Positions 15,259 through 42,425 of a DNA stretch of 64,000 bases are shown here, in pieces; the first letter of the stretch is position 1; each line of letters starts with the position of its first letter. The DNA is from Candidatus Parcubacteria bacterium (lineage in GTDB: Bacteria; Patescibacteriota; Minisyncoccia; Phycocordibacterales; Zambryskibacteraceae). Location of the stretch: contig JAIFWJ010000001.1 in the NCBI GenBank assembly GCA_019661865.1, positions 110,809 to 174,808 on the forward strand. The letters are read 5' to 3'. Under the pieces are notes generated by a model. It was not told the origin of the DNA, did not search any database, and saw only the letters and a list, made by a program, of their open reading frames with translations. The position numbers were made by a program, and so were the translations under genes.

Positions 15259-15312
15259 TTAAGTATTAAAAGTATAGCAAGGTGATGTTGTATAACAATG
15301 GAGATCTATCTA

Positions 15313-15340: not shown

Positions 15341-15375
15341 TATGTAAGTAACTGACCTTTCAATCGTGAGGAAAT

Positions 15376-17336: not shown

Positions 17337-17416
17337 GTATCCTGCTAAACCTGTGTTTATTAGACGACAATATTATACCAGAAATGTGGGCAAAGCGCTA
17401 GTGGCTGGGGATAACG

Positions 17417-18283: not shown

Positions 18284-18308
18284 GTGATTAGCTTATAGGT
18301 TCTTGGTA

Positions 18309-20231: not shown

Positions 20232-20237
20232 ATGAGT

Positions 20238-20789: not shown

Positions 20790-20874
20790 TAATGAAAATT
20801 AGGGCTTAAATCAAGAGCAGGATAACTTAACGTATTGACTTTATATATAAACCGTGCTAGGGTAGAAGTTAGAT

Positions 20875-21153
20875 ATGTTCACCCCAACCCGAGAGACAAT
20901 GACTTTCGAGGAAATCAAAAAGAAGGATGCGGAGCTACGTACAGAGTGGCACTGCGAGTACCCAGTACCACGAAAGAAGATCGAGGAAGCTCAAACTCTA
21001 GTGGCATTGGCGAAGTCCATGAAGCAGAACCTCACGGACAAGTCCGAGCTCTCTCTGCTCAGCCACATGGTCGCCAGATGGAACGTACGGCTCAAGAATC
21101 TTACGACTTCAGAGAGTTCACCGAGTTCCACCTTCATGCAAGTAGCAGGCTAA
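20875..21153 (+). CDS. hypothetical small protein (plus-strand orphan)
   Basis: 92-aa ORF followed by two tandem hairpin terminators. The alternative-frame ORF 20835..21212 looks less protein-like. Confidence 0.35.
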   Translation: MFTPTRETMTFEEIKKKDAELRTEWHCEYPVPRKKIEEAQTLVALAKSMKQNLTDKSELSLLSHMVARWNVRLKNLTTSESSPSSTFMQVAG

Positions 21154-21174
21154 CAAGCCTTCTACTTCTACACC

Positions 21175-21200
21175 GACCGCGCTACACACCAGTGTGCGCG
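21175..21200 (+). terminator. rho-independent terminator (CCGCGC…GCGCGG + TTTT)
   Basis: Hairpin followed by a T-run, downstream of the plus-strand orphan ORF. Confidence 0.5.
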
Positions 21201-21212
21201 GTTTTAGTTTGA

Positions 21213-21238
21213 AAAATCGGCCTCGGCCGATTTTTTTA
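21213..21238. terminator. bidirectional terminator (AAAAATCGGCC-TC-GGCCGATTTTT)
   Basis: Perfect 11-bp stem flanked by A-runs and T-runs on both sides. Sits just after the rpsI stop on the minus strand. Confidence 0.65.
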
Positions 21239-21634
21239 TCTCTTGCTCCACTGTGGAGCCTTGCGGGCTTTCTTCAGACCGAACTTGCGACGTTCCTTAG
21301 CGCGGGGGTCACGCTTTAAGAGACCCTTAACCTTAAGTTTCCTACGGAGTTCGCTATCATACTCGACGAGTGCACGTGCAATACCGTGACGAACTGCACC
21401 TGCTTGAGATGAGATACCACCTCCCTCTGCTTTAACTGTTACTGAGAACTTCTGAGTAAGTTCGGCTGTATCAAATGCTGAAGTGACTGAACGACGGAGT
21501 TCAGGAGTTGGGAAATAAGTGTCGAAGTCTTTCTCATTTATGGAAATGTGGAGTTTAGAAGCAGGAGTAATACGCACGCGCGCTATGCTGGTCTTTCTTC
21601 TTCCTGTTGCTTCGATGTATTTAGTCTCTGCCAT
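21236..21634 (-). CDS. rpsI: 30S ribosomal protein S9
   Basis: 132 aa. C-terminal …RKFGLKKARKAPQWSKR. Confidence 0.95.
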   Translation of the reverse strand: MAETKYIEATGRRKTSIARVRITPASKLHISINEKDFDTYFPTPELRRSVTSAFDTAELTQKFSVTVKAEGGGISSQAGAVRHGIARALVEYDSELRRKLKVKGLLKRDPRAKERRKFGLKKARKAPQWSKR

Positions 21635-21638
21635 GAAT

Positions 21639-21986
21639 TTAATCTTTAATAGTTAAATTCTTTATCATTCTGGCACGGAGTTTATTCTTCGGAAGCATGC
21701 CCATGACAGCTTTCCTTAGTACTTCCTTGGCTCCCTTCTTCTCGACCACTTGTTCTACCGAAAGGGTCTTAAGAGAGCCTGGGTAGCCTGAGTGACGAGA
21801 GTAGGTCTTACCGGTTCGCTTTTTCTCACTGATAGAAAGCTTGGATGCATTGGTAACCTCGACAGAGATGTCAGGTATATCATTACGTACATAATCAGTG
21901 CGGTTCTTACCCATAAGAAGCACGGCCACCTCTGTGGCGAGGCGTCCTGGTCTCTTATTCGTAGCGTCTAAAGTAACTTTTTGCAT
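21639..21986 (-). CDS. rplM: 50S ribosomal protein L13
   Basis: 115 aa. L13-like sequence immediately upstream of rpsI. Confidence 0.9.
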   Translation of the reverse strand: MQKVTLDATNKRPGRLATEVAVLLMGKNRTDYVRNDIPDISVEVTNASKLSISEKKRTGKTYSRHSGYPGSLKTLSVEQVVEKKGAKEVLRKAVMGMLPKNKLRARMIKNLTIKD

Positions 21987-21990
21987 AATT

Positions 21991-22338
21991 TTATACGAAC
22001 TCTATTACGGCCATAGGAGCGCCGTCTGATGCTCTGCGTACAAGCTTGGTGATGCGTGTGTATCCACCAGCTCTCTCCTTGTAGGTGGGAGCTATATTAA
22101 CATAAGCGCGTTTAGCTGCCATCTTACCCACACGTGCTTCCAGTAAACGGCGAGCTGCTGGCGTCTGCTTCTTGGCAAGGGTAACTAACTTCTCGGTGTA
22201 AGGACGGAGTTCCTTGGCCTTGGCCTCAGTAGTCTTAATCTTACCTTTAGTGATGAGTGAGTGCGCCAAGGACTTCAAGAGAGCTTTTCTCTGGCTTCTT
22301 TCACGACCGAACTTTCTGTTAGCGTTATGATGGCGCAT
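21991..22338 (-). CDS. rplQ: 50S ribosomal protein L17
   Basis: Starts at internal MRHHNANRKFGR. The longer ORF start at 22407 would overlap rpoA. Confidence 0.9.
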   Translation of the reverse strand: MRHHNANRKFGRERSQRKALLKSLAHSLITKGKIKTTEAKAKELRPYTEKLVTLAKKQTPAARRLLEARVGKMAAKRAYVNIAPTYKERAGGYTRITKLVRRASDGAPMAVIEFV

Positions 22339-22342
22339 AAGT

Positions 22343-23302
22343 TTATTTAAGAGTAATGCCGAACTCTCCAAGAGCTTTCTTGATCTCCTGGATACCCTTG
22401 GCACCAAGACCTTCTATAGTGAGAAGATCCTTCTCCTTCTTCCTAGCTAGACCTCCGACAGTGCGGATGTTCGCATTAGCTAAAGCATTTTGAGTTCTAG
22501 CTGAGATATCAAGCGACTCAACACGGGTCTTAAGAACTTCAGGATCAATCTCTGTTCTTGAGTTGTTGGATTCCTCTGTGTGAGACTCTTCTACTACTGG
22601 AGCCTCTTCCTCCTTGAAGCCCACGATTGCCTTAAGCTGGTTAATCATGATCTCTATCGACTGAGTTAAAGCTTCAGTAGGAGTGATGGTGCCGTCGGTC
22701 TCTATAGCAATCTTAAGTTTGTTGAAGTCTGTTCTGTCACCTACGCGCATGTTTTCTACTTCGTAACTTGCACGACGGATAGGGGTGAAGCTTGCATCGA
22801 GTGCATATGTTCCAACTTCTACTCTGTCTTTCTGAAGAGCCTCCTTAGATACAAGACCAATACCTCGCTCAGCCTTTATCTCCATCTCAAGCGTAGTGTT
22901 CTTACCAGTAATAGTAGCAATATGCTGCTCTGGGTTAGCGATGGTAACCTGGCCTGGGATTTCTAAGTCTGAAGCTTTAACCTCTCTTTCTCCTTTAATC
23001 TTGAGAGTTAGTATCTGAGGCTCATCTGTGGTGAAGCGCATACGAATTTTCTTCAAGTTCAAGAGAATAGTGATGACGTCCTCCTTAATACCATCAATGG
23101 TCGAAAACTCGTGAGTAACTCCTGGGATCTTCACAGAAGTAATAGCTACACCAGGAAGTGAGGAAAGAATGATTCGACGAAGAGAGTTACCTAGAGTGTG
23201 TCCGTAACCGGGGTAAAGTCCCTCGATCTCGTAGACACCGCTCGTAGCCTCGTCTGTGACGATCTTTGGCTTCGAAGGAAGGATGATTGTGTAATCTGCC
23301 AT
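22343..23302 (-). CDS. rpoA: DNA-directed RNA polymerase subunit alpha
   Basis: 319 aa. N-terminal dimerisation domain and C-terminal HhH domain. Lies between rpsD and rplQ. Confidence 0.95.
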   Translation of the reverse strand: MADYTIILPSKPKIVTDEATSGVYEIEGLYPGYGHTLGNSLRRIILSSLPGVAITSVKIPGVTHEFSTIDGIKEDVITILLNLKKIRMRFTTDEPQILTLKIKGEREVKASDLEIPGQVTIANPEQHIATITGKNTTLEMEIKAERGIGLVSKEALQKDRVEVGTYALDASFTPIRRASYEVENMRVGDRTDFNKLKIAIETDGTITPTEALTQSIEIMINQLKAIVGFKEEEAPVVEESHTEESNNSRTEIDPEVLKTRVESLDISARTQNALANANIRTVGGLARKKEKDLLTIEGLGAKGIQEIKKALGEFGITLK

Positions 23303-23322
23303 AAAAATTAAATTATTTTTTG

Positions 23323-23925
23323 TTATCTACTATAAAATTCGAGCACTGCTCCCAGATCGAATACGTGCTCTGACTGCACGTAGGCTGGCAATCCCACCAC
23401 ACGTACACGCTTACCGGGCTCTACCTGAAGCCAGGCAGGAACAGTAACTTGGTTCTGTCTCTCCACGACTTCAGCGAACAAAGGACTGGCTTGGCTTCCC
23501 TCTCGCACCGAGACTTCATCTCCAATGCGAAGGTGCATTGAAGGTATGGTCACGCGGCGGCCATTCACCACTCCATGACCGTGGGCGGCCATCTGGCGAG
23601 CAGCAGCACGAGTCTTGGCGAAACCAGAGCGGTAGAGAATGTTATCAAGGCGAAGTTCAAGTGCACGGAAGAGTTTCTGAGTAGGCTCAGGAGAGTTTAC
23701 TGTTGACTTCACATAAGTTTTAAACTGTCTTTCGGCAAGACCGTAAGTGAGACGAGCCTTCTGCTTTTCTATAAGTTGCTTACCGAACTCTGACTTGGGT
23801 CTCTGTGGAACCATGCCGTTCTTTTCCTTGCGAGAATATGAAAGTGCGTATTTCTGAGTTTGAGTTTTCTCAAATATTGGAGCACCGAGTCTGCGAGCAA
23901 TTTTATATTTTGGTCCGATTTTCAT
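23323..23925 (-). CDS. rpsD: 30S ribosomal protein S4
   Basis: 200 aa. S4 N-terminus with S4 RNA-binding domain. Confidence 0.95.
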   Translation of the reverse strand: MKIGPKYKIARRLGAPIFEKTQTQKYALSYSRKEKNGMVPQRPKSEFGKQLIEKQKARLTYGLAERQFKTYVKSTVNSPEPTQKLFRALELRLDNILYRSGFAKTRAAARQMAAHGHGVVNGRRVTIPSMHLRIGDEVSVREGSQASPLFAEVVERQNQVTVPAWLQVEPGKRVRVVGLPAYVQSEHVFDLGAVLEFYSR

Positions 23926-23942
23926 AAGTTATTATATTTAAA

Positions 23943-24377
23943 TTATGCACGACGAGGCTTAGGTGCTTTGGTTCCGTTGTGAGGAACTGGAGTTCTGTCT
24001 TGGATAGAGACAAGGTTAATGCCTTTAGATATAAATCCTCTGATAGCTGATTCTCTACCAGACCCTACGCCCTTCACCACTACCTTCACTTCCTTAACAC
24101 CGAACTGTTGGGCTTTCTCACCTATGACTTCTCCGATCTTGGCAGCTGCAAATGGAGTTCCCTTCTTAGCGCCCTTAAAGCCGAGTGCTCCTGAGGTAGA
24201 CCAGGCCAGTACGCCACCCTTGGAGTCAGCTAAGACAAGCTTAGTATTATTGTATGTGGATTCAACATTTAAAATACCTGACTCAACGCGCTTCTTAGAG
24301 CTTGATCTTGAAGTAGCCTCAGCCGGCTTCTGAGTCTCGTTTTCTCCCTCTGTCTTTACTATGCGTTTCTTACCCAT
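23943..24377 (-). CDS. rpsK: 30S ribosomal protein S11
   Basis: 144 aa. S11 core …AKKGTPFAAA…. Confidence 0.95.
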   Translation of the reverse strand: MGKKRIVKTEGENETQKPAEATSRSSSKKRVESGILNVESTYNNTKLVLADSKGGVLAWSTSGALGFKGAKKGTPFAAAKIGEVIGEKAQQFGVKEVKVVVKGVGSGRESAIRGFISKGINLVSIQDRTPVPHNGTKAPKPRRA

Positions 24378-24406
24378 TGTTTATATTGTTTATATAAGGT
24401 CATGAA

Positions 24407-24787
24407 CTATGTCTTCTCAACTATCTTGCGGCCGGTACCCATGGTCTTACGGACGTTACCGCGACGAGTGCGAGAATTGGTCTTGGTTCTCTGACCTCTG
24501 ACTGGAAGCCCTCTCTGGTGTCTTATCCCTCGGTAGGCCTTAATATCCTTGAGACGTTTAACATTGGCAGCTACCTCACGCTTGAGGTCACCCTCGAGAG
24601 TTAGAGACTCAATAATAGAGCGGATCTTGTTCTCAGACTCTACGCTGATGCTCTTAGGGCGGAGAGAGGGGTCAATCTTGGCTTCCTTAAGGATACTTGT
24701 TGCGCGGGAACGACCAATACCATAAATGACGGTTAGGCCGATATCAATACGCTTCTCCTCTGGGATAGTTATACCTAGTATTCTCAT
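24407..24787 (-). CDS. rpsM: 30S ribosomal protein S13
   Basis: 126 aa. MRILGITIP… start. Confidence 0.95.
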   Translation of the reverse strand: MRILGITIPEEKRIDIGLTVIYGIGRSRATSILKEAKIDPSLRPKSISVESENKIRSIIESLTLEGDLKREVAANVKRLKDIKAYRGIRHQRGLPVRGQRTKTNSRTRRGNVRKTMGTGRKIVEKT

Positions 24788-24789
24788 TA

Positions 24790-24906
24790 TTAACCTTGCC
24801 TCTGTTTATGGCGTGGATTAGCGCTACAGACCACATATACATACCCCTTGCGCCTTACAATTTGGCACTTGGAGCACATCTTTTTTACCGACGCCTTTAC
24901 TTTCAT
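24790..24906 (-). CDS. rpmJ: 50S ribosomal protein L36
   Basis: Not in the ORF track (38 aa). Reverse-complement translation gives [38 protein letters not shown]. Confidence 0.9.
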
Positions 24907-24917
24907 AGAGAGATAAT

Positions 24918-24945
24918 ATTGTAACCGAGCTTCAAATTTTGTCAA
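24918..24945 (-). promoter_or_regulatory. internal sigma70-like promoter (TTGACA-16-TACAAT) immediately upstream of rpmJ
   Basis: Minus strand -35 at 24940..24945 and -10 at 24918..24923. The ATG of rpmJ is only ~11 nt downstream of the -10, giving a very short leader. Confidence 0.45.
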
Positions 24946-24978
24946 CACGAGACTATCCAAGACCCCTTATTCTGGGGC

Positions 24979-25194
24979 CTATAGGCGCTTCACTATTCTG
25001 GCCTTCCCTCCGTAGGGCTCGAGCTCGAGTTGTACTCTATCTCCCACCAGAACTCTTATGCGGTGGAGTCTCATCTTACCAGAAAGGTACGACAAAAGCT
25101 CACCCTCTTCATTGTCGAGTCTTACTTTGAACATAATATTAGGTAGCGCTTCAGTAACTACCCCGGTGCGCTCCAGGTCTTTATTCTGTGGCAT
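24979..25194 (-). CDS. infA: translation initiation factor IF-1
   Basis: 71 aa. S1-like OB fold (…GKMRLHRIRVLVGDRV…). Confidence 0.9.
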   Translation of the reverse strand: MPQNKDLERTGVVTEALPNIMFKVRLDNEEGELLSYLSGKMRLHRIRVLVGDRVQLELEPYGGKARIVKRL

Positions 25195-26596
25195 TCGTCT
25201 CTACAATCTTAATCTTTGTTGGATCACTTGGGAAGGTGTTACGCCAGAAAGGCTTAATACTTGCGCTTCCAGTCACAACGCTAGGATAATTTTTTAGGAT
25301 AGTTACAAAATCAGTTTTAGGCTTGCCAGCCAAGTCAGAAGCAAGTGCCGACTCATCGGTCTTCCACTCTACCTTAGCAGAACCAGAAACTTGGAAACTA
25401 ATATTTTCTGTCGTTTGGAGATTGGCTTGTGATGAACTAGCCAGAGTAAATGTAAGTGAAGTGTAGTCTGGGATCACCACGGTCTGTCCAGCTTGACTGC
25501 CCAGCTTCTTCTCTGTGAGACTTCTGTCCAAGTCAGTTTTCTTAAATGCCACTCCATATAAATCTCCTTTTTCTGTAATTAAGGCCTGTGAACTTGAACC
25601 TGCTTGAGTAGGCACGACTTCGAAACTCATTTTAGCTAGACTCGGGATAAGTACATAGTCCTCTGGCACTTGAGCCTTAGCTTGAGTTGAGAGATCATTC
25701 TTAATCTGAGCTTCTAGAGTAGTTTTAGCACGCTGTACATCTGCTGCACTGGCTTTCTTTATCGTACCGACGAAACCGCCTGTAATCGGAGTCTTCGACC
25801 TGCCATACATAGCAGTGAACCTAGGATCGCCCTTAAGTCCAGGAATAGTAAAGTCTGTCGGAGAAATATTGTATGTATCACCTGGTTGATCTGCTACTAC
25901 GGTTACTTCAAGTGAGCCAGGTTCACTGCCGTTCGGAGTTTGCTTCTTCCCTGGGACAGTTATATCTGATTGAATTCTATAAATCTTACCATCGGTTGTC
26001 TCGAAGCGAGTGTTGGTGATAAGTTTTTGAGGATCAGCACTGAAGTCATTGTAGACAACGAGAATGCCTGAAGCCTTTTGAGATACTTGTTCTTCTCCAG
26101 AAGCTGGAGCAGTAGTATTCTTTTGTGAACTGAGTTTAACGATACTAAATAATAGATTTCCTTGAGTCTTAGAAGCAGAGAATGAGTCGTTCGAGAGTGT
26201 TAACACCGATGTCTTCGGCACGTATGTGAGTGTCGCACCTGAAAGCAGGGTGAAGATAACCCCAAGAGCGATGAAAATAGCTATAACTCCTAAAGAAATC
26301 CAGACACCCCTTCGAGATTTCTTGCGAGACTCTCGAGGTTCTACATATTCTGTCTCACGCGAGGTTGGCACACTCGACCCATAGGCTTGATCTGAGCGAT
26401 ACTCAGGTATAGCTGTGCTTCGAGGTCCTTCATTTACTCTCACAGACTCACGAGGTGGTAGATCCATCCTCTGTGGCGGAGCGATGTCTCGAGGGCCGTT
26501 TAATATATTTATATTTTTTCTTCTGCTTTCTGGTATGGGTATATCTCTTATAGAGCGACGTTCTGGAGGGGTAATATCTTCAATGTTCTTTGCCAT
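25181..26596 (-). CDS. hypothetical single-pass membrane protein with large extracytoplasmic S/T/Q-rich domain
   Basis: About 95-aa basic, proline-rich cytoplasmic N-terminus, one TM (WISLGVIAIFIALGVIFTLL), ~350-aa outside domain. No family motif recognised. Confidence 0.5.
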   Translation of the reverse strand: MAKNIEDITPPERRSIRDIPIPESRRKNINILNGPRDIAPPQRMDLPPRESVRVNEGPRSTAIPEYRSDQAYGSSVPTSRETEYVEPRESRKKSRRGVWISLGVIAIFIALGVIFTLLSGATLTYVPKTSVLTLSNDSFSASKTQGNLLFSIVKLSSQKNTTAPASGEEQVSQKASGILVVYNDFSADPQKLITNTRFETTDGKIYRIQSDITVPGKKQTPNGSEPGSLEVTVVADQPGDTYNISPTDFTIPGLKGDPRFTAMYGRSKTPITGGFVGTIKKASAADVQRAKTTLEAQIKNDLSTQAKAQVPEDYVLIPSLAKMSFEVVPTQAGSSSQALITEKGDLYGVAFKKTDLDRSLTEKKLGSQAGQTVVIPDYTSLTFTLASSSQANLQTTENISFQVSGSAKVEWKTDESALASDLAGKPKTDFVTILKNYPSVVTGSASIKPFWRNTFPSDPTKIKIVETNATE

Positions 26597-26648
26597 TTGA
26601 TAATTTTACTAGACTTTTCCCTTAAGGCAATGTGGAAACTGGGTCTAG

Positions 26649-27818
26649 TTAGAATATTGACTTTAAATAAGCGATTATTATGTTAAGTGCATCGTCTCTC
26701 CTGCCGCCGCTAGCCGTCTTTACCAGCTCATCAGTAAATTTGTTATCCTCACCTATAAGTGTTACTCCTCCAGGTACCACTGACTCAAGAAGCACTTTAC
26801 CAAGCTCTGTGTGGGATCTTCCAGAAACTAGGAATACGTTCTGGGGCAAGTTACCGAGCTTAGTAGCCTTCACTACACTTGCCTCCCACATTTTCTTCCA
26901 CTCATCCTCTCCACTTTGTAATATTTTATTCAGAGCCTCTCTGGTTGCATCATCCAGGCTATTAGATGCAAAGAGGGCTAGGTATGAGTACGCTAGAGTC
27001 AGAGGGATGTTCATCTTATCCTTTATTAGACGGGCCACTGTGGTCGATCCGAATGGCAAGATAAAATTTTCTGCTGGAAAATCTTTATGGATTAAGAACA
27101 CGTCCGTAGTCTCGTGGCTCATGTCTACCAGGAGTGCAGTATGAGTATTCTTGAAGCTCCTGGTCAAGACATTCCAGAACGTAAACATGAATCCTTGAAT
27201 ATGAAAACCACGCCTTATGCCGAAGGATCTTATGACCTCCTCCTCAACTCTCTTTATCAAGTGTCTCTCCGCAGCCGACATATGGATGCTAACTTCTGCA
27301 GATTTAGTGTACTTAGAAATGGGAAGGGATGCCTCGTAGCCATTTAATCTTATGTTGGCTACTTGAGATTCGAACACTTCACACTCGGACTGATATGCGT
27401 TCTTAAGATCTTTCTTAAACTGCTCCTCTTCTTTACTTATGACCTCATCCACCATGCGTTTATCGAGAAGAAATTCTTTATCCTTACTTACAGTTACAGG
27501 TTTAAGTCTCGAGAGTATCCAAGGTGAAGAAAGTATGACACTTACATACTCGAAGTGTGGAGAGAGCTTCCTTCTACTCAGGGTAGTTAAACCATCTTTC
27601 GACACCAGAGAGAAAACGTCTCTTATAGTGCGAAGCATCTTAGCTTCTAAATTTTCAAAGGCGGGTTCTTCTTCTAGAAAGAATGCCAGACGAGCGTTAG
27701 AAATAATTTCTGGAAGGCTCCCGTGCCTGAAGTGGACAATAGCCGCTCCCACACTTCCGGAGGTTAAGTGAAGAACAAGAACAGTTCGATCATTCTGTTT
27801 CGAAGATCCAAACAACAT
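26649..27818 (-). CDS. actin-fold (ASKHA) ATPase-like protein, FtsA/PilM/MreB-type, with degenerate phosphate-2 loop
   Basis: N-terminal phosphate-1-like VLVLHLTSGSVGAAIV. VDMSHETTDVFLI aligns to the DIGGGTTD motif but has lost the glycines. Confidence 0.4.
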   Translation of the reverse strand: MLFGSSKQNDRTVLVLHLTSGSVGAAIVHFRHGSLPEIISNARLAFFLEEEPAFENLEAKMLRTIRDVFSLVSKDGLTTLSRRKLSPHFEYVSVILSSPWILSRLKPVTVSKDKEFLLDKRMVDEVISKEEEQFKKDLKNAYQSECEVFESQVANIRLNGYEASLPISKYTKSAEVSIHMSAAERHLIKRVEEEVIRSFGIRRGFHIQGFMFTFWNVLTRSFKNTHTALLVDMSHETTDVFLIHKDFPAENFILPFGSTTVARLIKDKMNIPLTLAYSYLALFASNSLDDATREALNKILQSGEDEWKKMWEASVVKATKLGNLPQNVFLVSGRSHTELGKVLLESVVPGGVTLIGEDNKFTDELVKTASGGRRDDALNIIIAYLKSIF

Positions 27819-27832
27819 ACATTCATTGTACC

Positions 27833-28315
27833 CTAACTATTGGTTGAGTTAAGTATATACTTCGGGACAATTCCAAGAGCCATGTACTCTTCTTGGAGTT
27901 CTTTGGGCAAGATGAAGAAATTCCTCACTACCTTTCTACAGTTCTTACTTCCACAGTTACATTTCATCTTCCAAATATCATCTTTACCAATTATGGTTGA
28001 GTAATCCATGACCAGTTCTTGGCCAATTTGAATTGGTGTAATTGCAAACAGCTCTAAATTACTCCCCGTCTTCCTTACTCCACAGTTTGGACTGCATGAA
28101 TGATTCAAGAAGTCTCCTATTTCTCCTTCGGGACTTAAGTACATTTCTGGGCCAAATCTAAAAGCATTATCTCCAATTTTTCCACCAATTTTAAATAACT
28201 TAGACCAGTGGTAGACCTTACCTTTAATTATAAAAAGCTTTTGTTTCGACCTAAATTCTCGTAAAGCAAAAATGCCTCTACCACTCCTGGCATCTCTTAC
28301 CTCTAAGCCCCTCAT
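27833..28315 (-). CDS. SET-domain protein (putative lysine methyltransferase)
   Basis: NHSCSPNC, ELVMDY and post-SET Cys cluster CNCGSKNC. 4-nt overlap (ATGA) with the alaS stop. Confidence 0.8.
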   Translation of the reverse strand: MRGLEVRDARSGRGIFALREFRSKQKLFIIKGKVYHWSKLFKIGGKIGDNAFRFGPEMYLSPEGEIGDFLNHSCSPNCGVRKTGSNLELFAITPIQIGQELVMDYSTIIGKDDIWKMKCNCGSKNCRKVVRNFFILPKELQEEYMALGIVPKYILNSTNS

Positions 28316-29934
28316 TCCAAGACTGCTTTAATGCGTCTCACTCCAGCTGACACGGCTTCTTCTTTCTGAATTTTAAATTTCCCAAGCTCGCTTGTATTAG
28401 ATACATGTGGACCACCGCAGAATTCCTTCGAATAAGCATGTTCCATGGAGTCTCCTATATAGTAGACACTGATCTCATCACCATACTTGTCGCCGAAGAA
28501 GTGCAGGGCACCTGTCTTCTCCGCCTCTGCCTTAGGTAGTATTACTCTATTTACTGGCAATGCTTCACTTATTTTCTCGTTTACAATTTCTTCTACTCTT
28601 TTCTTCTCCTCATCTGTCATCTTACGAGGGAAGGCGAAGTCGAAGCGCAGTCTCTCTGGAGTAATATTACTCCCCTTCTGACTCACATCATGCCCCAACA
28701 CATCGCGTAGAGCCTGATGGAGCAAATGTGTAACCGTGTGATACTGAACTTCCTTATCCGAGTGCCCGGCAAGACCACCTTTGAACTTGGCCTCCATGCC
28801 TCTGCGAGACATTTCTTGATGTTTTTTAAATCTTTCTTCGAAATCTTTTTCGTTAATCTCGATCCCCTTTTCTTTAGCAAGTTCCTTGGTGAGCTCAAGA
28901 GGGAATCCGTAAGAAGTGAAAAGTACAAAAGGGTCGCGACCCTTCTCAAACTCTTTAAGTCCCGCGTCCAGTGTCTCCTTAAATTTATTTGTCTCTGTTT
29001 CAAATACAGACCAGACTTCGTTTAAATTAAATTCATAAAAATCTTTATAACTTAAGTGATTTACCACTGCTTCTACAACCGGCTTCAAATCCCTTTGGTA
29101 CACAAATGCGCGTCTTATGAGTCGTCTTAGAACATATCCTCGTTCAGAATTTGACGGTCTGACTCCGTCAGAAATCATAAATACTGCACTTCGTACATGG
29201 TCAGCCACTATTCTAGATTTAGCTACGCTTAAAATTGAGACGAATAAATCTGTATCGAAAACTGTCTGTACTTCTTGTGAGACCATGGCGAGCCTTTCAA
29301 GCCCCATGCCAGTATCTATGCCTTTTATATCAAGTGGACGGAGAGTCTTGTCAGCGCTCTGATAAAATTCGTTGAAGACAATGTTCCAGATCTCGATACC
29401 GTCCACATATATTTCTGTCGTGGGACCACAAGGTCCCTCAGTACCTGTTGGTCCCCAGAAGTTATCTGCACGACCGAAAGCTCGAACACGAATACTTGGG
29501 TCAATAGATTTCCAAATTCTCTCAGACTCTTCATCCTTAGGCACTCCTTCTTCTCCCTCAAATATTGTGACGTAGTCAATCTTAAGACCCATTACTTCTG
29601 TGACGAACTCGTGTGCGTACTCTATAGCCTCCTTCTTCCAATATCCGCCGAAGCTGAAGTTACCGAGCATTTCAAAAAAAGTTAAGTGTCTCTCGTCTCC
29701 TACTTCTTCTATGTCAGAAGTTCGAACTGACTTCTGCACAGATACAGTGTTCTTAGAACCGAAATCTGACATAGGATCCTTCACTCCTAAGTAGTACGGC
29801 TTGAACTGCTGCATGCCGGCCGTGGTGAAGAGTACTGACGGGTCGTCGGTGACAAGCGGAGACGAAGGCACAACCTTGTGTCCCTTACCCTCGAAAAATT
29901 CTAAAAATTTCTGTCGTATTTCTCGTGATTCCAT
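28312..29934 (-). CDS. alaS: alanyl-tRNA synthetase, short form lacking C-Ala domain
   Basis: N-terminal catalytic domain (…FTTAGMQQFKPYY…). Editing-domain HxxxH (HLLHQALRDVLGH) and CGGPHV motifs. Ends after the editing domain at 540 aa. Confidence 0.85.
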   Translation of the reverse strand: MESREIRQKFLEFFEGKGHKVVPSSPLVTDDPSVLFTTAGMQQFKPYYLGVKDPMSDFGSKNTVSVQKSVRTSDIEEVGDERHLTFFEMLGNFSFGGYWKKEAIEYAHEFVTEVMGLKIDYVTIFEGEEGVPKDEESERIWKSIDPSIRVRAFGRADNFWGPTGTEGPCGPTTEIYVDGIEIWNIVFNEFYQSADKTLRPLDIKGIDTGMGLERLAMVSQEVQTVFDTDLFVSILSVAKSRIVADHVRSAVFMISDGVRPSNSERGYVLRRLIRRAFVYQRDLKPVVEAVVNHLSYKDFYEFNLNEVWSVFETETNKFKETLDAGLKEFEKGRDPFVLFTSYGFPLELTKELAKEKGIEINEKDFEERFKKHQEMSRRGMEAKFKGGLAGHSDKEVQYHTVTHLLHQALRDVLGHDVSQKGSNITPERLRFDFAFPRKMTDEEKKRVEEIVNEKISEALPVNRVILPKAEAEKTGALHFFGDKYGDEISVYYIGDSMEHAYSKEFCGGPHVSNTSELGKFKIQKEEAVSAGVRRIKAVLE

Positions 29935-29955
29935 GTGTGAAAATATATCAGAAAG

Positions 29956-29983
29956 TAAACAAAAAAGCCTGCCCCGGCAGGCT
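29956..29983 (-). terminator. rho-independent terminator between hypothetical gene and alaS
   Basis: Minus strand AGCCTGC-CGGG-GCAGGCT followed by TTTTTTGTTT. Confidence 0.6.
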
Positions 29984-29995
29984 GACCAGAATCGT

Positions 29996-30304
29996 TTATG
30001 ATCCTCCTTGAGTCTTAGGCACCTTACGGGGGCTCACAGCAGTCTCTAGAACCTTGAAGGCTTGAAGTGGAGTGTTTTTCAGTAGAACATCGTTCAGGTC
30101 ATTCATGTGTTCTTCATCCATGATCTCCTGAAGACGAGTGCTGGCTCGAGAGATCTGATCAATTCTTTTTTTAGCTCTCTCGGCGATCTCCTTGTCTGGC
30201 CTGACTAACATTATTCTCAAGTTACCCAAGTCTTTTCTTGCCTTTTCAAGTAATTTCCGAGCCTTTCCCACTGTGATAGGTACTTCTGACTTCTTTTGAG
30301 TCAT
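29996..30304 (-). CDS. hypothetical coiled-coil protein
   Basis: Start placed at internal MTQKKSEV… preceded by a GGGGGA SD-like sequence. No motif recognised. Confidence 0.4.
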   Translation of the reverse strand: MTQKKSEVPITVGKARKLLEKARKDLGNLRIMLVRPDKEIAERAKKRIDQISRASTRLQEIMDEEHMNDLNDVLLKNTPLQAFKVLETAVSPRKVPKTQGGS

Positions 30305-30355
30305 ATATCCCCCAGGTTTGTCTAACCTCAAATTAACACAAAAATTGACCTAAGT

Positions 30356-30946
30356 CTATACCAATGTTTTTAAAATTTTGAAATCCTCTTTCAGAAGCTC
30401 CCGAGTACTTCCGTTATAAAGTGCCACAGCTGGGTGGTAGAGGGGAACGACCTTCACACTTTGTCCTTCTACTTCTGTATCGAAAACTGTTCCATGTAGC
30501 TTACTTATAGGTCCAAGTTCGAAGTCGAGTCCGTATCTATTCATAATGTACTGCATGGAGAAGCGACCAAGAGTAGCTATGACCTTCGGCTTTATAATAC
30601 CAATCTGTCTGTCTAAATAAGGTGCGTACTCTGCTATCTCGTCTGGTTGTGGGTCTCTATTCTTGGGCGGCCTGTCCTTCACAATATTAGTTATATACAC
30701 ATCCTCACGCTTGATTCCCACTCCCTCTAGTAACTCATTTAAAAATTGTCCTGCACGGCCCACGAAGGGTCTCCCGGTCTTAGCTTCATTCTCTCCTGGT
30801 GCCTCACCGATAAATATTATTTCTGCATCATGCGACCCTTCTCCAAGTACTGGAAAGTACTTGCCCTCTCGCCTCATATCTGCAAGTCTCCCCTTCATCG
30901 CCACCACTTCATCCTTAATCTTTCTAAGTTCATCAGTCTTAGACAT
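30356..30946 (-). CDS. uracil-DNA glycosylase, family 4
   Basis: GEAPGENEAKTGRPFVGRAGQFL matches the family-4 UDG motif GEAPGxxExxxGxPFVGxAGxLL. Confidence 0.85.
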   Translation of the reverse strand: MSKTDELRKIKDEVVAMKGRLADMRREGKYFPVLGEGSHDAEIIFIGEAPGENEAKTGRPFVGRAGQFLNELLEGVGIKREDVYITNIVKDRPPKNRDPQPDEIAEYAPYLDRQIGIIKPKVIATLGRFSMQYIMNRYGLDFELGPISKLHGTVFDTEVEGQSVKVVPLYHPAVALYNGSTRELLKEDFKILKTLV

Positions 30947-30969
30947 AGACCAATTCTATCAAAATGATG

Positions 30970-31686
30970 CTAGAACGGGAGCGTTTCAGTCTCTGGCACA
31001 CTTTCAAATATCATGCGCTTATATACGGCTCGGACAGTCTCTACGTCTCGTTTGCAGTAATTACAAATATCTTCTAACTTCCCCGCTTTGAAAAATTCAT
31101 TTACCTGGCTACCATCTATCCCTTCCTTTGGTGTCGGTATGCCGAGAGCAAGTGCAATGTGCTCGATGCTTTTATTGTTCCACTTGTCTACCCAGTGTGA
31201 CCATTCCCACATGGTGTCGTAGACTGGACAACTTGTGTACCTGGCAAAGTCTAGAAACTTAACACCCGGTGGAAGCCTAAACTTACTTTCTCCCGGTTCT
31301 ATGGTGATCTTCCATGTGGGCTTCACTCCTAATATAACTGAGCGTTGCATGATGAAAGGAAGATCGAAGTCGCGGATGTTATGTCCCACAAGTAAGTCTG
31401 CCTTCGCTGCAATGTCCCAGAACTGTATTAGCATTTTTCTCTCGTTCTCAGGCCCTGAGATAGCTTCTACCCTATCATCATTCATGGCGAATCCGATGCA
31501 ACAGATTCTTCCGTAGGTACCGTCCGTCCCCGTGCCATCCCAGAATTCTTCAAATGTCTGCGCTTCCACAGCTGGATCTCTCTTCTGTTTCTTTGTCACT
31601 TTCTTCTCGTGTAAAAGACGGAGCGTCTTTTCATGTACCCCATCTGCTGGGAGTGTTTCTATATCAAAATAAAGTTTATTGACCAT
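30970..31686 (-). CDS. DEDD-family 3'-5' exonuclease (RNase H-like fold)
   Basis: Exo I-like YFDIETLP, Exo II-like VGHNIRDFDLPF, and Exo III-like …YCKRDVE. Confidence 0.6.
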   Translation of the reverse strand: MVNKLYFDIETLPADGVHEKTLRLLHEKKVTKKQKRDPAVEAQTFEEFWDGTGTDGTYGRICCIGFAMNDDRVEAISGPENERKMLIQFWDIAAKADLLVGHNIRDFDLPFIMQRSVILGVKPTWKITIEPGESKFRLPPGVKFLDFARYTSCPVYDTMWEWSHWVDKWNNKSIEHIALALGIPTPKEGIDGSQVNEFFKAGKLEDICNYCKRDVETVRAVYKRMIFESVPETETLPF

Positions 31687-31696
31687 TGGTCAGAAT

Positions 31697-32111
31697 CTAG
31701 TCCTGCTTCTTGTACTCCTCAATCTTTATCATCATGTGCTCAATAAGAAGGAGGATGCTAAATACGAAGAGCGTAGCAATTGTAGCAAATATAGCCAGTA
31801 TTGATAAACGTGGTGAGACCAGAGAGCCTGGAGTCCTTGAAGACTATTACTCCACCGCAAAGGAAACCTATGCCCATGATAACTCCCGCTGCAGTACGCA
31901 TAGGGTCAAATGTGTATCCGCCTGTCTCTGGTATGACTATACGGGAAATAAGTATAAAGAGGCAGGATCCCATGGAGACCAGAGCGTAAGTTCTCATGCC
32001 AGCGGTCTTACCTGCAAATGTGCGCTCGATCCCAAGACACGCTCCCAAGATAAGAGCCAGGAGTAAATTTGTAAACGGTACCAAGTTACTGGTTGTATCT
32101 AAAATATTCAT
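31697..32111 (-). pseudogene. MgtC/SapB-family membrane protein, apparently frameshifted near its 3' end
   Basis: MgtC N-domain signature (…LGACLGIERTFAGKTAGMRTYALVSMGSCLF…GLTT). The annotated frame ends at 31758 in …CYNCYALRI. The adjacent frame continues as LAIFATIATLFVFSILLLIEHMMIKIEEYKKQD to a TAG at 31697, a plausible final TM helix. Confidence 0.45.
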
Positions 32112-32116
32112 GAGTC

Positions 32117-32950
32117 TTAAAGTTCACTGATTTCTTGTAAAACTTTCTCCACTCTATCTTTACCCAGAACTGTTTCAAGTATTACTGGATTTTCTACAAG
32201 TGAGGAACAGAGGACTGTACCAGAAGTTAAGATTTCTTTCTTCTCTACTGATGTAAGAGAACTCAAGCATGTGAGTGGATGCAGATGCTCTTCCACAATC
32301 ATATCCTGGAGATTACCCTTCTCCGGATAGTTCCATCCTATCATGGTTAAGTTCATGCAGACTCCGTAATGTATAGCGGTTGAGGAAAACTTGGTGTTAG
32401 TGATGAGCCAACTTTCATTTACCGGTCTGTTCATACCACCGTAGTTATAAACATTTTCTTTAAGGTCATCGAAGCGAGCCTTCACATATAGTGCTACCTT
32501 GAGGTCCGACTTGCTGCCGAGCTCATTGTGGAACTTGGCTTCAGCCATGAGGAGCTTCTTATCGTTCCATGCCACCACATCAATCTCATGAGGCACGCAG
32601 CCGCCAAGTACATTTTGCCGAGTTAAGGTCTGGTAGCCCTTGGCCTTGAGAATTTCTGCTACGAAGTCCTCGAATGGGAAACCAGATGGACCAAGGTCTA
32701 GGAGAGCGCGGCGGATAGAATATCTGTAAGCAACTGGCTTCTCATGCTCATGGAGGAGCCTAAAGGCCTTGGAGTATATCTCCGCCGTAGGCATGTCATT
32801 GTGGAGACTCTCTAAAATGTTCTGCATCACTGATTCCACCGACTCTGTATCAGCACCAGAACGCATGAGTGATGAGCGCAACTTCTCCGGCTCGAAGACC
32901 TCTCTTTTACCTGTAGCCTTGATAACAGTAAACTGCACTCCGTTTGTCAT
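32117..32950 (-). CDS. ATP-cone domain fused to PD-(D/E)xK (Mrr-like restriction endonuclease fold) nuclease
   Basis: N-terminal VIKATGKREVFEPEKLRSSL (ATP-cone). Central …PHEIDVVAWNDKKLLMAEAKF (D…E-x-K nuclease core). Confidence 0.55.
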   Translation of the reverse strand: MTNGVQFTVIKATGKREVFEPEKLRSSLMRSGADTESVESVMQNILESLHNDMPTAEIYSKAFRLLHEHEKPVAYRYSIRRALLDLGPSGFPFEDFVAEILKAKGYQTLTRQNVLGGCVPHEIDVVAWNDKKLLMAEAKFHNELGSKSDLKVALYVKARFDDLKENVYNYGGMNRPVNESWLITNTKFSSTAIHYGVCMNLTMIGWNYPEKGNLQDMIVEEHLHPLTCLSSLTSVEKKEILTSGTVLCSSLVENPVILETVLGKDRVEKVLQEISEL

Positions 32951-33007
32951 CAGACTAGTATAACAGTGTTCATTTATAAAAATATCCCCAACAAACTGTT
33001 GAGGACA

Positions 33008-33961
33008 TTACTTGGCATCTAACTTCCGACGGATATCGAGAACAGCTGTTTCTAGCTTGTTATCAGAGCCAATTTTTTCTGCCTTGGCAATGATCTCGTT
33101 CACGGCACTGGGCCCTTCAATCTGGCCGAGAGCACGGAGTTCGAGCCGTTGTTTGACTAGCTCAAGTGGCACAAGCCTTTCGAAGACTGGTCGTAGAGCT
33201 TCAAGAAGAATACTTCGCGACTCTTCTCTGACCAGATCAACTCGACCTTGGAGCTTACGTAAGCGAGTCTCGTATTCTATGTCGGAAAAATGAGCTTCTG
33301 CCTTCGGGATGAATGTTTCAACCTCCCGAAAGAATCTCAAAGCAGCCTGCTGATCACCTTCAAGCTCAGCGTAGAGCTTCTTATACTTCTCTACCTCAAG
33401 TTGTGCCTCATCTGCTAAACTACGGGCACCTGGGTCATACGTCTGATCAAAACGCTCCTGCCAGTATCTTAGAATCGTGCGTGCTTCATTGAGCTCCAGC
33501 TTGATCTTGTTCATCTGGCGCACCACTTGTGACCTTTCACCTTCGACACTGTCCTTGGCCGCCATAATTACGCTCTTCTGTTTTTCAAGAATGAGCTTTA
33601 GGATAGCGGCTGTGTCAGGTTCTGGTACTGGGTCCTGAACAAAGTTTTGAATTTTCTTCCTGCGGATTTTCATCAAAAGAAAGGCACGCAACGTCCAAGT
33701 TGTAAGGATTCCGGCAACAGTTCCTACTAAAGCCAGCAATAAACTGTTTTTACTGTAATCAACCCCTGGCAAAAGTAGAAAGGTAATACCTATTCCTAGC
33801 AAGCATGATGCAAGAAGGGCTCTAATTGAGTCACCTAACGCTTGAACAAAGCTGAGTGGTTGAGGTTGTATTCTGACAAAGACAGACTTGGGAGTCACGT
33901 CTTTGATTACTTCTTGAATCCGTTTATCGAGTTCTCGATCATCAAGCTCAAATAACCACAT
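33008..33961 (-). CDS. hypothetical membrane protein with two TM helices and long coiled-coil
   Basis: Hydrophobic hairpin around residues 50-100, then a K/E-rich helical region. No motif recognised. Confidence 0.45.
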   Translation of the reverse strand: MWLFELDDRELDKRIQEVIKDVTPKSVFVRIQPQPLSFVQALGDSIRALLASCLLGIGITFLLLPGVDYSKNSLLLALVGTVAGILTTWTLRAFLLMKIRRKKIQNFVQDPVPEPDTAAILKLILEKQKSVIMAAKDSVEGERSQVVRQMNKIKLELNEARTILRYWQERFDQTYDPGARSLADEAQLEVEKYKKLYAELEGDQQAALRFFREVETFIPKAEAHFSDIEYETRLRKLQGRVDLVREESRSILLEALRPVFERLVPLELVKQRLELRALGQIEGPSAVNEIIAKAEKIGSDNKLETAVLDIRRKLDAK

Positions 33962-34028
33962 GTTGTAGCTCCTAGCGAATGTGAACTAATGTGAAGGTTC
34001 GTCTTGACTATTTATATAACTAATTATG

Positions 34029-35117
34029 CTAGTTGTCAATCACACCTCCACCTAGACATTCTTCACCCGCGTAAAATACTAGTGACTGTCCAGGAGCGGC
34101 TGTGTGTGGATCTTTGAAAATTACTTTGTCTCCTTTAACTTGGATCGGAAATCTCTCTTGTCTGTAGCGGATTCTAGCTTCGAGGTCCTTAGTATCAGGT
34201 TCTAGCTTACTTACCCAATTCAACTTCTCTAGTCTCACAGATGTCGGAGATGCTGAATTTATTTCTTCTGGATTATCCGAGACAGTTATAGTGTTTCTCT
34301 CTATGTCCTTAGAAATTATATAATGTGGTTTCCTCTTAGAATTCTTCTCGAATATTTCAAAGCCGTGCCTCTCACCGAGTGTGTAGAGTAATGCGCCATT
34401 GTGCGTTCCTATAACTTCACCAAGTGTATTTAGAACTTGTCCATGTTTAGTACTTATATAGTGAGATAGAAATACTTCAAGATCCACTTGGCCTAAGAAA
34501 CATATTCCCTGACTGTCCTTCTTCTCTGCTACAGGCAGATCGAACTTATGGGCAAGCTTCCTCACCTCGCTCTTCTCATATCCACCAACGGGGAAAAGTG
34601 TATGTGATAAGTCCTCCTGTGTGAGGGTCCATAGGAAGTAACTCTGATCCTTTTCCTTATCATCACTCTCATGAAGCGAGAATTGATCAGAAGTTTTTCT
34701 GACAATTTTCGCGTAATGACCTGTCGCAATATAATCTGCGCCCATCTCGCGGGCCTTCTTCCAGAATGCACCGAACTTAATCTCGCGATTACACATCACA
34801 TCCGGGTTCGGAGTTCTGCCACGCTTGTATTCTTCAATCATATAATCCGCCACACCCTTCTTATACTCCTCTTCGAAATCGAAAAAGAGAAATGGAATCT
34901 TCAAATGTGCTGCCACACGCATGGCGTCTCTTCTCTCTTCTCTCCATGTGCACGGTAAGAAGTCCGGCTGCCAGACCTTTATAAATACTCCTGTGACATC
35001 GTAACCCTGTGTCTTAAGAAGCGCAGCGGAGACTGCACTATCTACTCCACCAGAAAGACCCACAAAGACTTTTTTCGGGCTAGAGATACTTCTGGATATT
35101 TGCGACATGTTCTTCAT
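34029..35117 (-). CDS. mnmA: tRNA-specific 2-thiouridylase MnmA
   Basis: PP-loop VFVGLSGGVDSAV. NPDVMCNREIKFGAFW. Confidence 0.9.
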   Translation of the reverse strand: MKNMSQISRSISSPKKVFVGLSGGVDSAVSAALLKTQGYDVTGVFIKVWQPDFLPCTWREERRDAMRVAAHLKIPFLFFDFEEEYKKGVADYMIEEYKRGRTPNPDVMCNREIKFGAFWKKAREMGADYIATGHYAKIVRKTSDQFSLHESDDKEKDQSYFLWTLTQEDLSHTLFPVGGYEKSEVRKLAHKFDLPVAEKKDSQGICFLGQVDLEVFLSHYISTKHGQVLNTLGEVIGTHNGALLYTLGERHGFEIFEKNSKRKPHYIISKDIERNTITVSDNPEEINSASPTSVRLEKLNWVSKLEPDTKDLEARIRYRQERFPIQVKGDKVIFKDPHTAAPGQSLVFYAGEECLGGGVIDN

Positions 35118-36081
35118 GAGTTTTGGCGTAGTGCATATTACCCTTTTTGTCGCTTAAAAAGTAGAGATACGAGGTGCTAGTTGGATTAATAGCCGCATCG
35201 AGTGCAACTAGGCCTGGGTTTCCTATGGGGGTTGGTGGTAATCCTCTGTATTTATACGTGTTATACGGAGTGTCGAGTTCCAGATCAGACTGAGTAAGTT
35301 CACTACTTGCTTTATAAACAATGTATCCAAGTGTGGCATCAACCTGAAGTGGCATACCCAGGTTAATCCTCTTCCATAAGATCCCTGAAACAATTTTCAT
35401 ATCAGTCTCAGTCTTGGCTTCTGCTTCTAGTATTGATGCCATGGTTACTAAGTCACTCTTGGTGTGTCCCGAGGCAAGAATCTTACTTTCAAGTGGTTTA
35501 ATCTTTTTATCGAATGTTTCTTGGAAGAATTTTGAGGTGGAGGAAGCGGTGGTATTTACTCCGACGAAGTATGTGTCAGGAAATAAGTAACCTTCTGGTG
35601 AGTGTCTCTCGAAGTATGAGTGATCGAAGAAGACAAACTTTTTATCAAAAAGATTTGAGATTTCTTTCACGGTTAGTCCTTCAGGAATTGTAATCTTTAT
35701 CGTCTCAATGTCGTGCTTACCGTTTACCATCCTCCAAGCTAGGTGCCAGACACTCTCTGGACCTCCAAGGTAGTAGTCTCCTGCCTTAATGCTTTTCTCC
35801 CCGCCTAACGCGATAACCACACTTCTAAACCAGACTGCGGAGCGTATGGCATGACTTTCTTTAAGTGTGTTAGAAAGTTCTAGGAGTCCTGCGCCTTCAC
35901 GCAGGGTGACGATAGAATTCTTGGGGAAATTTCTCGGTGCAGTAGCTGTAAATGTATAAACAACAGCTATAACGATTATCAAGATAGAAATATAGAGCCT
36001 CGGATCACGCCTGAACTTCTGCCAAGACGCATGAATATGATCGAGTGCAAGGCTCGCACCGTTAAATATAGGGTTCTGCAT
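35080..36081 (-). CDS. mltG: endolytic murein transglycosylase MltG (YceG family)
   Basis: N-terminal TM. YNTYKYRGLPPTPIGNPG signature. Confidence 0.85.
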   Translation of the reverse strand: MQNPIFNGASLALDHIHASWQKFRRDPRLYISILIIVIAVVYTFTATAPRNFPKNSIVTLREGAGLLELSNTLKESHAIRSAVWFRSVVIALGGEKSIKAGDYYLGGPESVWHLAWRMVNGKHDIETIKITIPEGLTVKEISNLFDKKFVFFDHSYFERHSPEGYLFPDTYFVGVNTTASSTSKFFQETFDKKIKPLESKILASGHTKSDLVTMASILEAEAKTETDMKIVSGILWKRINLGMPLQVDATLGYIVYKASSELTQSDLELDTPYNTYKYRGLPPTPIGNPGLVALDAAINPTSTSYLYFLSDKKGNMHYAKTHEEHVANIQKYL

Positions 36082-37323: not shown

Positions 37324-37343
37324 AATTTAATTGTACAGCCTAT

Positions 37344-37886: not shown

Positions 37887-37901
37887 TATTTTAATATTGC
37901 T

Positions 37902-38963: not shown

Positions 38964-39011
38964 CTGCCAGAGCTAGTGTCAAGCATATGATCATTTTCTT
39001 TTATTATCTTA

Positions 39012-42363: not shown

Positions 42364-42425
42364 ACATCTAGCTTATAGCCTGGGAGATAAAAAGCAAAGA
42401 GCTTTAACAAAAAGACTAGCTTACG

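Follow-up and report, generated by a model that had tools for sequence, protein, structure and literature searches.

The 64,000-nucleotide (nt) stretch of Candidatus Parcubacteria bacterium DNA analyzed here (contig JAIFWJ010000001.1, positions 110,809 to 174,808; hereafter the window) contains on its minus strand, at 27833..28315, a gene for a 160-amino acid (aa) SET-domain methyltransferase, located directly behind alaS, the gene for alanyl-tRNA synthetase (AlaRS). Its motifs and predicted structure identify the product as a genuine SET-fold protein in which the catalytic motif set is complete and a post-SET Cys cluster is present. It is probably an accessory S-adenosylmethionine (AdoMet)-dependent protein-lysine methyltransferase, passively expressed from the housekeeping alaS transcript and acting on one or more endogenous proteins. 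A preliminary description of this DNA had connected the position of the gene with the translation machinery and considered a ribosomal or translation-factor substrate conceivable; comparative genomics refutes this inference of function from the location of the gene.

The coding sequence (160 codons plus stop) matches the Pfam SET profile PF00856 over profile positions 1-104 of 105, with an E value of 1.3e-12 and 48.5 bits, well above the gathering score of 22.4. SET is the only Pfam domain in the protein, whose first residue lies 11 positions before the N-terminal GxG motif. This motif, G12-R13-G14 (28274..28282, minus strand, as for all motifs below), aligns with HGRG of MLL1 and, by analogy with known SET structures, would bind AdoMet. 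The three motifs on which the SET assignment had originally been based can be read directly in the DNA of the minus-strand open reading frame (ORF). NHSCSPNC (residues 71-78, 28082..28105), the AdoMet-binding NH(S/C) motif, aligns with NHSCEPNC of MLL1; ELVMDY (residues 100-105, 28001..28018), which ends with the conserved active-site Tyr105, aligns with ELTYDY; and CNCGSKNC (residues 119-126, 27938..27961), a post-SET CxCx4C cluster and predicted zinc site, aligns with CNCGAKKC. Cys74 of NHSCSPNC is the predicted fourth ligand of this zinc site. An identical protein, encoded on a 188.5-kb contig, is listed in NCBI as SET domain-containing protein-lysine N-methyltransferase (Candidatus Parcubacteria bacterium). 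The SET-domain assignment is correct and already public, hence not new.

An alignment of 23 family sequences shows that G32, N71, H72, S73, C74, P76, N77, D104, Y105, W115, M117, C119, C121, G122, C126, R127, and Y144 are invariant, and that G12, G14, and P137 are at least 90% conserved. The AdoMet-binding, catalytic, and zinc-ligand positions are conserved across these homologs and are therefore all under constraint. Homolog N termini align from residue 1-3, which backs the annotated start codon. Residue 103, a Met in the window protein, is variable (F, I, L, M, Y, or W) and is aligned in the PDB sequence comparison opposite Tyr3942 of MLL1, which we take to be the F/Y switch for product multiplicity. 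The MLL1 numbering was counted back from the C terminus of the PDB construct and is consistent with the mutant names among the Foldseek matches. The post-SET cluster is followed by a family-specific C-terminal tail (residues 128-160, 27836..27934, minus strand), in which a confident model places helices at 138-147 and 152-155. Its conserved pattern is F..LP..L...Y....IVPKYIL, where the central Tyr is the invariant Y144, and a second tail type (G.DWK...LQ.KY.G.FS.YLQ) is found in more distant family members.

AlphaFold2 prediction with the family alignment gave a model with a mean predicted local distance difference test score (pLDDT) of 93 and a predicted template modeling score (pTM) of 0.87. 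In this model, the first strand starts at residue 4 with no N-terminal extension, the SET-I insert is short (helices 37-43 and 45-49), and tail residues 131-150 have a pLDDT of 95-96. As assessed by Foldseek, the predicted structure matches 376 PDB chains at E ≤ 0.001, with a probability of 1.00 to MLL1, ASH1L, NSD1, and SETD2. The top match is the MLL1 SET domain (E 3e-10), query-normalized TM-scores to the four proteins are 0.63-0.72 (0.70 for ASH1L), and the root-mean-square deviation (rmsd) is 2.6-3.7 Å for most ASH1L, MLL, and SETD2 chains. Comparison of the single sequence with the PDB gave the SET and post-SET region of KMT2A/MLL1 as best match (E 4e-11), followed by KMT2B-D, SET1, NSD1-3, SETD2, and ASH1L. 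Using the 23-sequence family profile lifted the KMT2A match to 4e-25. When the C-terminal 57 residues were compared with the PDB, the tail had no significant match to a solved structure (E 0.23 for the post-SET cluster alone, and E 0.5 for a weak stretch of BurB, a bacterial SET enzyme discussed below).

The SET and post-SET regions of the KMT2/Trithorax proteins (MLL1-4, SET1) share 27-30% identity with the window protein over ~140 columns, and GxG, NHSCxPNC, ELxxDY, and CxCGxxxC occur in the same order and with the same spacing. However, the window protein is only 160 aa long, lacks the N-flanking SET-N/Win region and all other domains, and shows no sign of dependence on WRAD-type partners (WDR5-RbBP5-ASH2L). 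It has a Met in place of Tyr3942 of MLL1, it continues with a conserved tail of 30 residues beyond the post-SET cluster, which is the C-terminal end of KMT2 proteins, and, being prokaryotic, it has no histone H3 substrate. Its similarity is to the catalytic core of KMT2 enzymes, and it does not belong to the KMT2 family itself.

The position behind alaS is not conserved. The comparison covered 87 other SET-homolog loci, seven from exact-protein look-ups and 80 from a genome scan, and alaS lies within ~6 kb of the SET homolog in one of them (L002). In these loci, tblastn searches with alaS, infA, UDG, and rpsM from the window, and with the 389- and 471-aa genes found there between SET and infA (p389 and p471), were positive only in L002. 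This metagenomic contig harbors the closest SET (55% identity) in the order UDG-M29 peptidase-alaS-SET-293 aa-441 aa-infA. The six closest relatives of the window alaS (L088-L093, 72-75% identity, on contigs of at least 20 kb) all retain YceG-MnmA-...-UDG-alaS, followed by p471 homolog-infA-rpsM-rpsK-rpsD-rpoA, but none of the six has a SET gene after alaS. The ORF is therefore absent in close relatives in which alaS is intact. The gap after alaS in these SET-less relatives is 4-50 nt, and a tblastn search for a SET remnant in L088-L091 found nothing better than E 0.16.

Inspection of the interval between alaS and p471 shows how variable it is. Homologs of p471 (39-45% identity by tblastn) are found directly before infA in L002 and L088-L091, and unannotated 451-aa genes occupy this position in L092 and L093. 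A p389 homolog follows alaS in L088 (35% identity), is partly present in L002, and is absent in L089-L093. The slot thus contains SET and p389 in the window, SET and a 293-aa gene in L002, a 384-aa gene in L088, and nothing in the other five loci. The junction between alaS and p471 behaves as a small hotspot for accessory genes. SET is an optional insertion into a conserved block, UDG-alaS followed by p471-infA-rpmJ-rpsM-rpsK-rpsD-rpoA-rplQ, and this insertion is shared with one related lineage only (L002). In a rough neighbor-joining tree, the SET proteins of the window and L002 pair as sisters within a Paceibacteria clade of 13 members, which occupy at least four unrelated gene contexts. In the other members, SET follows a GlcD-like flavin adenine dinucleotide oxidase gene and precedes L25 or IMPDH-purA-guaA, follows a sigma-70-like gene and precedes MscL, or is flanked by a CofD-family gene and a redoxin gene. 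All-against-all clustering of the neighbors revealed no family-wide partner gene. Since SET is accessory and missing in the closest relatives, its position behind alaS says little about its methylation target, and gene order, which differs in the six relatives, in all but one of the 87 loci, and between the contexts within the clade, provides no evidence for a ribosomal or translation-factor substrate.

The organization of the locus nevertheless makes it likely that SET is co-transcribed and translationally coupled with alaS. As previously described, the start codon of SET and the TGA stop codon of alaS share two bases in the sequence ATGA (28312..28315, minus strand; the plus strand reads tcat). 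The upstream alaS (28312..29934, minus strand) encodes a short-form alanine--tRNA ligase of 540 aa, identified by Pfam (tRNA-synt_2c, E 2e-105, and tRNA_SAD) and by NCBIfam PRK01584 (562 bits, cutoff 529). SET was also thought to head the block leading into infA-rpmJ-rpsM. It does belong to the same co-directional run, but two genes unrelated to translation intervene. The first, p389 (26649..27818, minus strand), starts 14 nt downstream of SET and has no Pfam match and a weak FtsA-like NCBIfam match (E 6e-4). The second, p471 (25181..26596, minus strand), is a conserved gene found directly after alaS in most relatives. It precedes infA (24979..25194, minus strand), the start of the conserved infA-rpmJ-rpsM-rpsK-rpsD-rpoA-rplQ block, as supported by the synteny of infA and rpsM in L088-L093. 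A terminator-like GC-rich hairpin with a T-run, located between an upstream 111-aa ORF and alaS (29966..29983, minus strand), hints at where the alaS-SET transcription unit may have its 5' end. Similarly, the best sigma-70-like promoter match (TTGACA-16-TACAAT, 11/12; 24918..24945, minus strand) is in the 191-nt gap between infA and rpmJ, which suggests that the ribosomal-protein genes from rpmJ onward may have their own promoter, apart from a candidate alaS-SET-p389-p471-infA unit. Promoter- and terminator-like sites are no more numerous in this region than in shuffled sequence.

The overlap itself is normal packing and not evidence of shared function, because overlaps are routine in the window and close spacing is common in the homolog loci. 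The window contains ~40 consecutive minus-strand genes of unrelated functions (1094..42731), and 11 of its 56 same-strand junctions overlap, including another 4-nt overlap at 13017-13020. Elsewhere, SET homologs lie within 20 nt of the same-strand upstream gene in 43/82 loci, whichever gene that is. Because we saw neither room for a promoter nor an evident ribosome-binding site at the SET gene, it is probably expressed by read-through from alaS, with termination-reinitiation at the ATGA. Such expression would be constitutive and would imply no functional tie to AlaRS or the ribosome. The proposed co-expression with the translation machinery is thus supported as far as co-transcription and coupling with alaS are concerned, whereas a functional tie to translation is not.

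Outside the window, the family is large. A profile search over 1.84 billion representatives, counted as clusters at 50% identity, yielded 512 clusters at E ≤ 1e-30, 8255 at ≤ 1e-10, and 24,771 at ≤ 1e-3. Most top matches are single-domain proteins of 150-200 aa that align over the full profile, including the tail. These proteins form a standalone ~160-aa SET family with a conserved C-terminal tail. SET genes are uncommon per genome yet well documented, with >500 bacterial genomes containing them already counted by 2014 (PMC10117894, PMC3980110), so that "rare in bacteria", as the gene had been characterized, is overstated. In addition, one stringent peptide pattern was run against a single genome for each species and identified 159 relatives, of which the best 80 were used (a scan of genome contigs with the single protein gave no relatives, whereas the alignment-based scan did). 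These 80 are mostly from bacteria of the candidate phyla radiation (CPR; Paceibacteria, Nomura-, Kaiser-, Taylor-, Zambryski-, and Levybacteria) and DPANN archaea (Woese-, Pace-, Aenigm-, Micr-, and Nanoarchaeota), the remainder being from Spirochaetes including Leptospira, Flavisolibacter/Chitinophagaceae, Chloroflexota, and a few proteobacteria.

With a GC content of 0.379, SET is the lowest of the 13 genes in its block (neighbors 0.43-0.49) and the fifth-lowest of the 65 genes in the window (z -1.8; gene mean 0.448, S.D. 0.039). In addition, CPR and DPANN sequences are interleaved in the neighbor-joining tree. Both features fit lateral acquisition without proving it. Repeats flanking SET, direct or inverted, are limited to chance-level 14-22-mers. 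An anti-phage defense or phage-borne role was considered and rejected, since SET has no match in PADLOC defense systems or PHROG, and no tblastn match in 50,697 phage records.

Whereas domain identity, completeness of the motifs, fold, family size, the pattern of presence and absence, and gene packing are direct results of the analysis, we infer activity, lysine specificity, methylation multiplicity, mode of expression, and substrate class as follows. Based on its fold, the protein would be a small cytoplasmic standalone SET enzyme, most likely a protein-lysine N-methyltransferase. Its AdoMet pocket would be built from G12-x-G14, N71-H72-S73, and the post-SET segment, the latter being held by a zinc ion on C74, C119, C121, and C126. 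The substrate lysine would reach a narrow channel from the opposite face, and its ε-amine would attack the methyl group of AdoMet beside the invariant Y105. Because the F/Y-switch position has a Met instead of a Tyr (the family has mostly Phe, Ile, or Leu), transfer of more than one methyl group is predicted, making di- or tri-methylation possible. The helical tail of ~30 residues probably completes the substrate groove or mediates contact with a partner. By analogy, our best guess is that the enzyme acts on at least one abundant basic protein of its own cell, for example a nucleoid-associated protein. The functional model that we favor is provided by two other small prokaryotic SET proteins, cpnSET of Chlamydia and Go1-SET of Methanosarcina mazei, which methylate in vitro a resident DNA-binding protein, Hc1 and MC1-α, respectively (PMC3980110, PMC10117894). 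Go1-SET could not be placed in the window subfamily, as there was no M. mazei protein in the top 120 matches of a profile seeded from loci labeled Methanosarcinales.

Several points weigh against this interpretation. The nucleoid-protein idea is a guess by analogy. The SET fold is not always a lysine methyltransferase, because BurB, which matches the window protein at E 7e-8, methylates free methionine (PMC12542666). The accessory nature of the gene can also be read differently, since L002 and L088-L093 are about equally close to the window as judged from the identity of infA and p471, and the distribution of SET could reflect ancestral presence followed by losses rather than gain. Finally, a foreign origin is not proven, given the modest GC deviation and the small size of the gene.

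Could SET nonetheless methylate a ribosomal protein, a translation factor, or AlaRS, and be co-expressed with alaS and the infA/ribosomal genes for this reason? The ATGA overlap and the shared co-directional block with infA-rpmJ-rpsM would fit this scenario, and there is precedent in eukaryotic SET enzymes acting on ribosomal proteins, e.g. Rkm1 on uL14 (PMC11248248). Some homologs are near genes for L25 (four loci), S8e (three loci), or cysS (four loci), and members with the same tail type adjoin the gene for deoxyhypusine synthase (DHS), which modifies a lysine in aIF5A, directly so in seven loci. However, we consider this scenario unlikely. The slot is devoid of SET in 6/6 closest relatives, alaS is near 1/87 homologs, and no neighbor is common to the whole family. 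Genomes this small devote much of their gene content to translation, and some adjacency to translation genes is to be expected. Moreover, p389 and p471 intervene between SET and infA, and the best promoter-like site is located after infA, in front of rpmJ. In a search covering all loci and the window, no gene for elongation factor P (EF-P; query, an Escherichia coli sequence) or aIF5A (hypusine-loop pattern) was found near any SET homolog. A second scenario, in which the substrate is a small molecule, either a free amino acid as for BurB or a primary amine such as a polyamine, starts from BurB of Burkholderia thailandensis, which like the window protein is a standalone bacterial SET of ~160 aa. 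The two align over residues 12-145 (PDB 9l4t, 9l4v; E 7e-8 by single sequence, 4e-9 by Foldseek), i.e. into the tail region and beyond the coverage of the histone enzymes, and the conversion of methionine to S-methylmethionine by BurB is established (PMC12542666). Family members are also found within polyamine/hypusine clusters (speH-agmatinase-SET-DHS in L015, and agmatinase adjoining SET in L030 and L036). We nevertheless regard a small-molecule substrate as quite unlikely, because the family profile is far nearer KMT2 (4e-25) than BurB (1e-14), the rmsd to BurB is 6.5 Å versus 2.6-3.7 Å for most ASH1L, MLL, and SETD2 chains, and the post-SET CxCx4C cluster typical of protein-lysine methyltransferases is invariant. 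A family member from Roseibium similarly prefers KMT2A in the PDB, with BurB not appearing among its matches. BurB acts in a dimethylsulfoniopropionate (DMSP)/malleicyprol context (PMC12542666), whereas no such genes, and no polyamine, DHS, or DMSP-pathway gene, are found near the window SET. We therefore rejected membership in the BurB-type methionine S-methyltransferases.

A host-directed role would be of a different kind. A life attached to host cells is generally assumed for CPR bacteria and DPANN archaea, and SET might be an effector of an episymbiont that methylates host proteins. The concentration of the family in these organisms, the interleaving of CPR and DPANN sequences, which suggests transfer between such lineages, and the accessory and somewhat AT-rich nature of the gene are in keeping with this. 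Secreted SET enzymes are precedented by Legionella RomA/LegAS4, Burkholderia BtSET, Chlamydia NUE, and Bacillus anthracis BaSET, effectors that methylate histones of eukaryotic hosts (PMC10117894). In contrast to these nucleomodulins, the window protein is a minimal domain with no signal peptide or N-terminal extension (the fold begins at residue 4), its gene is embedded in a housekeeping operon and transcript, and the bacterium that encodes it is not known to infect eukaryotes. CPR bacteria have prokaryotic hosts, which lack eukaryote-type histones, the family is also present in lineages not known as episymbionts, among them Leptospira and Flavisolibacter, and the absence of PADLOC, PHROG, and phage matches offers no link to conflict systems. 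An effector role therefore appears very improbable, and the interpretation that we retain is an accessory protein-lysine methyltransferase with endogenous target(s).

The genomic context of more distant family members provides the sole hint related to the substrate that we found. A polyamine or hypusine gene is found within ~6 kb of the SET homolog in 14/88 loci. The DHS gene (PF01916) is the immediate same-strand neighbor of SET, in either order, in seven loci, six from DPANN and one from a Patescibacteria single-cell genome. Among the members in polyamine or hypusine contexts are Woesearchaeota SET proteins that share the tail type of the window protein and are 37-41% identical to it. The most complete arrangement, AdoMet decarboxylase (speH)-agmatinase-SET-DHS, is found in L015 (4642-7620). 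Polyamine or hypusine genes are found beside SET in L018, L028, L051, L056, L070, and L071 (about 5000-7700), and in L043 (6017-6406), L052 (1914-3831), and L076 (2457-3305), and agmatinase adjoins SET in two spirochaete loci, L030 and L036 (about 6500-7370). No paper combining deoxyhypusine synthase, SET domain, and archaea was found in the literature searched. On account of this adjacency, we retain a translation-factor or polyamine reading as one of low probability. The lead is not applicable to the window itself, because no DHS gene was found in the 64 kb searched. A broader conjecture, which we hold to be quite improbable, is that the ~160-aa prokaryotic SET proteins, including the window copy, modify a lysine of a universal translation component (an EF-P/aIF5A-type factor or a ribosomal protein). 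If so, the hypusine/polyamine embedding in DPANN and some CPR genomes and the alaS-SET order in the window would reflect the same biology, and there would be an unrecognized translation-factor methylation system in ultra-small prokaryotes.

Taken together, these findings define the window SET as a correctly annotated but uncharacterized member of a known superfamily, whose neighborhood carries no functional signal, and they caution against reading too much into operon position when a genome is this compact. CPR bacteria and DPANN archaea have no eukaryote-type chromatin but encode standalone SET proteins surprisingly often, and we know of no SET substrate from either group. Finding one would show the role of lysine methylation in the smallest cells and would be relevant to the origin of the SET fold in prokaryotes. 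The best starting point, which lies outside the window, is the recurrent adjacency of SET to deoxyhypusine synthase and polyamine genes.

A few additional observations concern the family and the window. Six SET loci (L041, L043, L044, L054, L058, and L065) are on third-party annotation (TPA) contigs labeled "uncultured Methanosarcinales archaeon", and SET is flanked there by PAP2 phosphatase-like and HTH_3 (MBF1-like) genes. Where NCBI gives names, the SET proteins of these loci are named as Nanoarchaeota, and a profile search seeded from them retrieved mostly unnamed metagenomic proteins, Nanoarchaeota and Woesearchaeota being the commonest names. In view of these names and of the lack of an M. 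mazei entry, we treated the TPA labels "Methanosarcinales", "Saccharibacteria", and "Gammaproteobacteria" with caution. The top profile matches also include four long proteins, P0027 (1449 aa), P0029 (1479 aa), P0034 (1415 aa), and P0156 (960 aa), each with 5-8 separate SET matches of ~160 aa. These apparent tandem arrays are either true fusions or assembly/gene-calling artifacts. A second SET paralog is found near the first in L018, L052, L070, and L078, directly adjoining it in at least L052 and L070 (5493-5924 and 6001-6429 in the latter), which suggests local duplication in some CPR and DPANN lineages. As for alaS, the short form is shared by relatives of the window protein (511-590 aa among the 120 listed, P0177-P0295). 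The window alaS ends at the tRNA_SAD editing-domain motif, without the C-terminal region of the 847-position TIGR00344 alaS model. Finally, four consecutive minus-strand genes at 11437-17336 have a low GC content (0.335-0.371 versus the gene mean of 0.448), and this block may have been laterally acquired.

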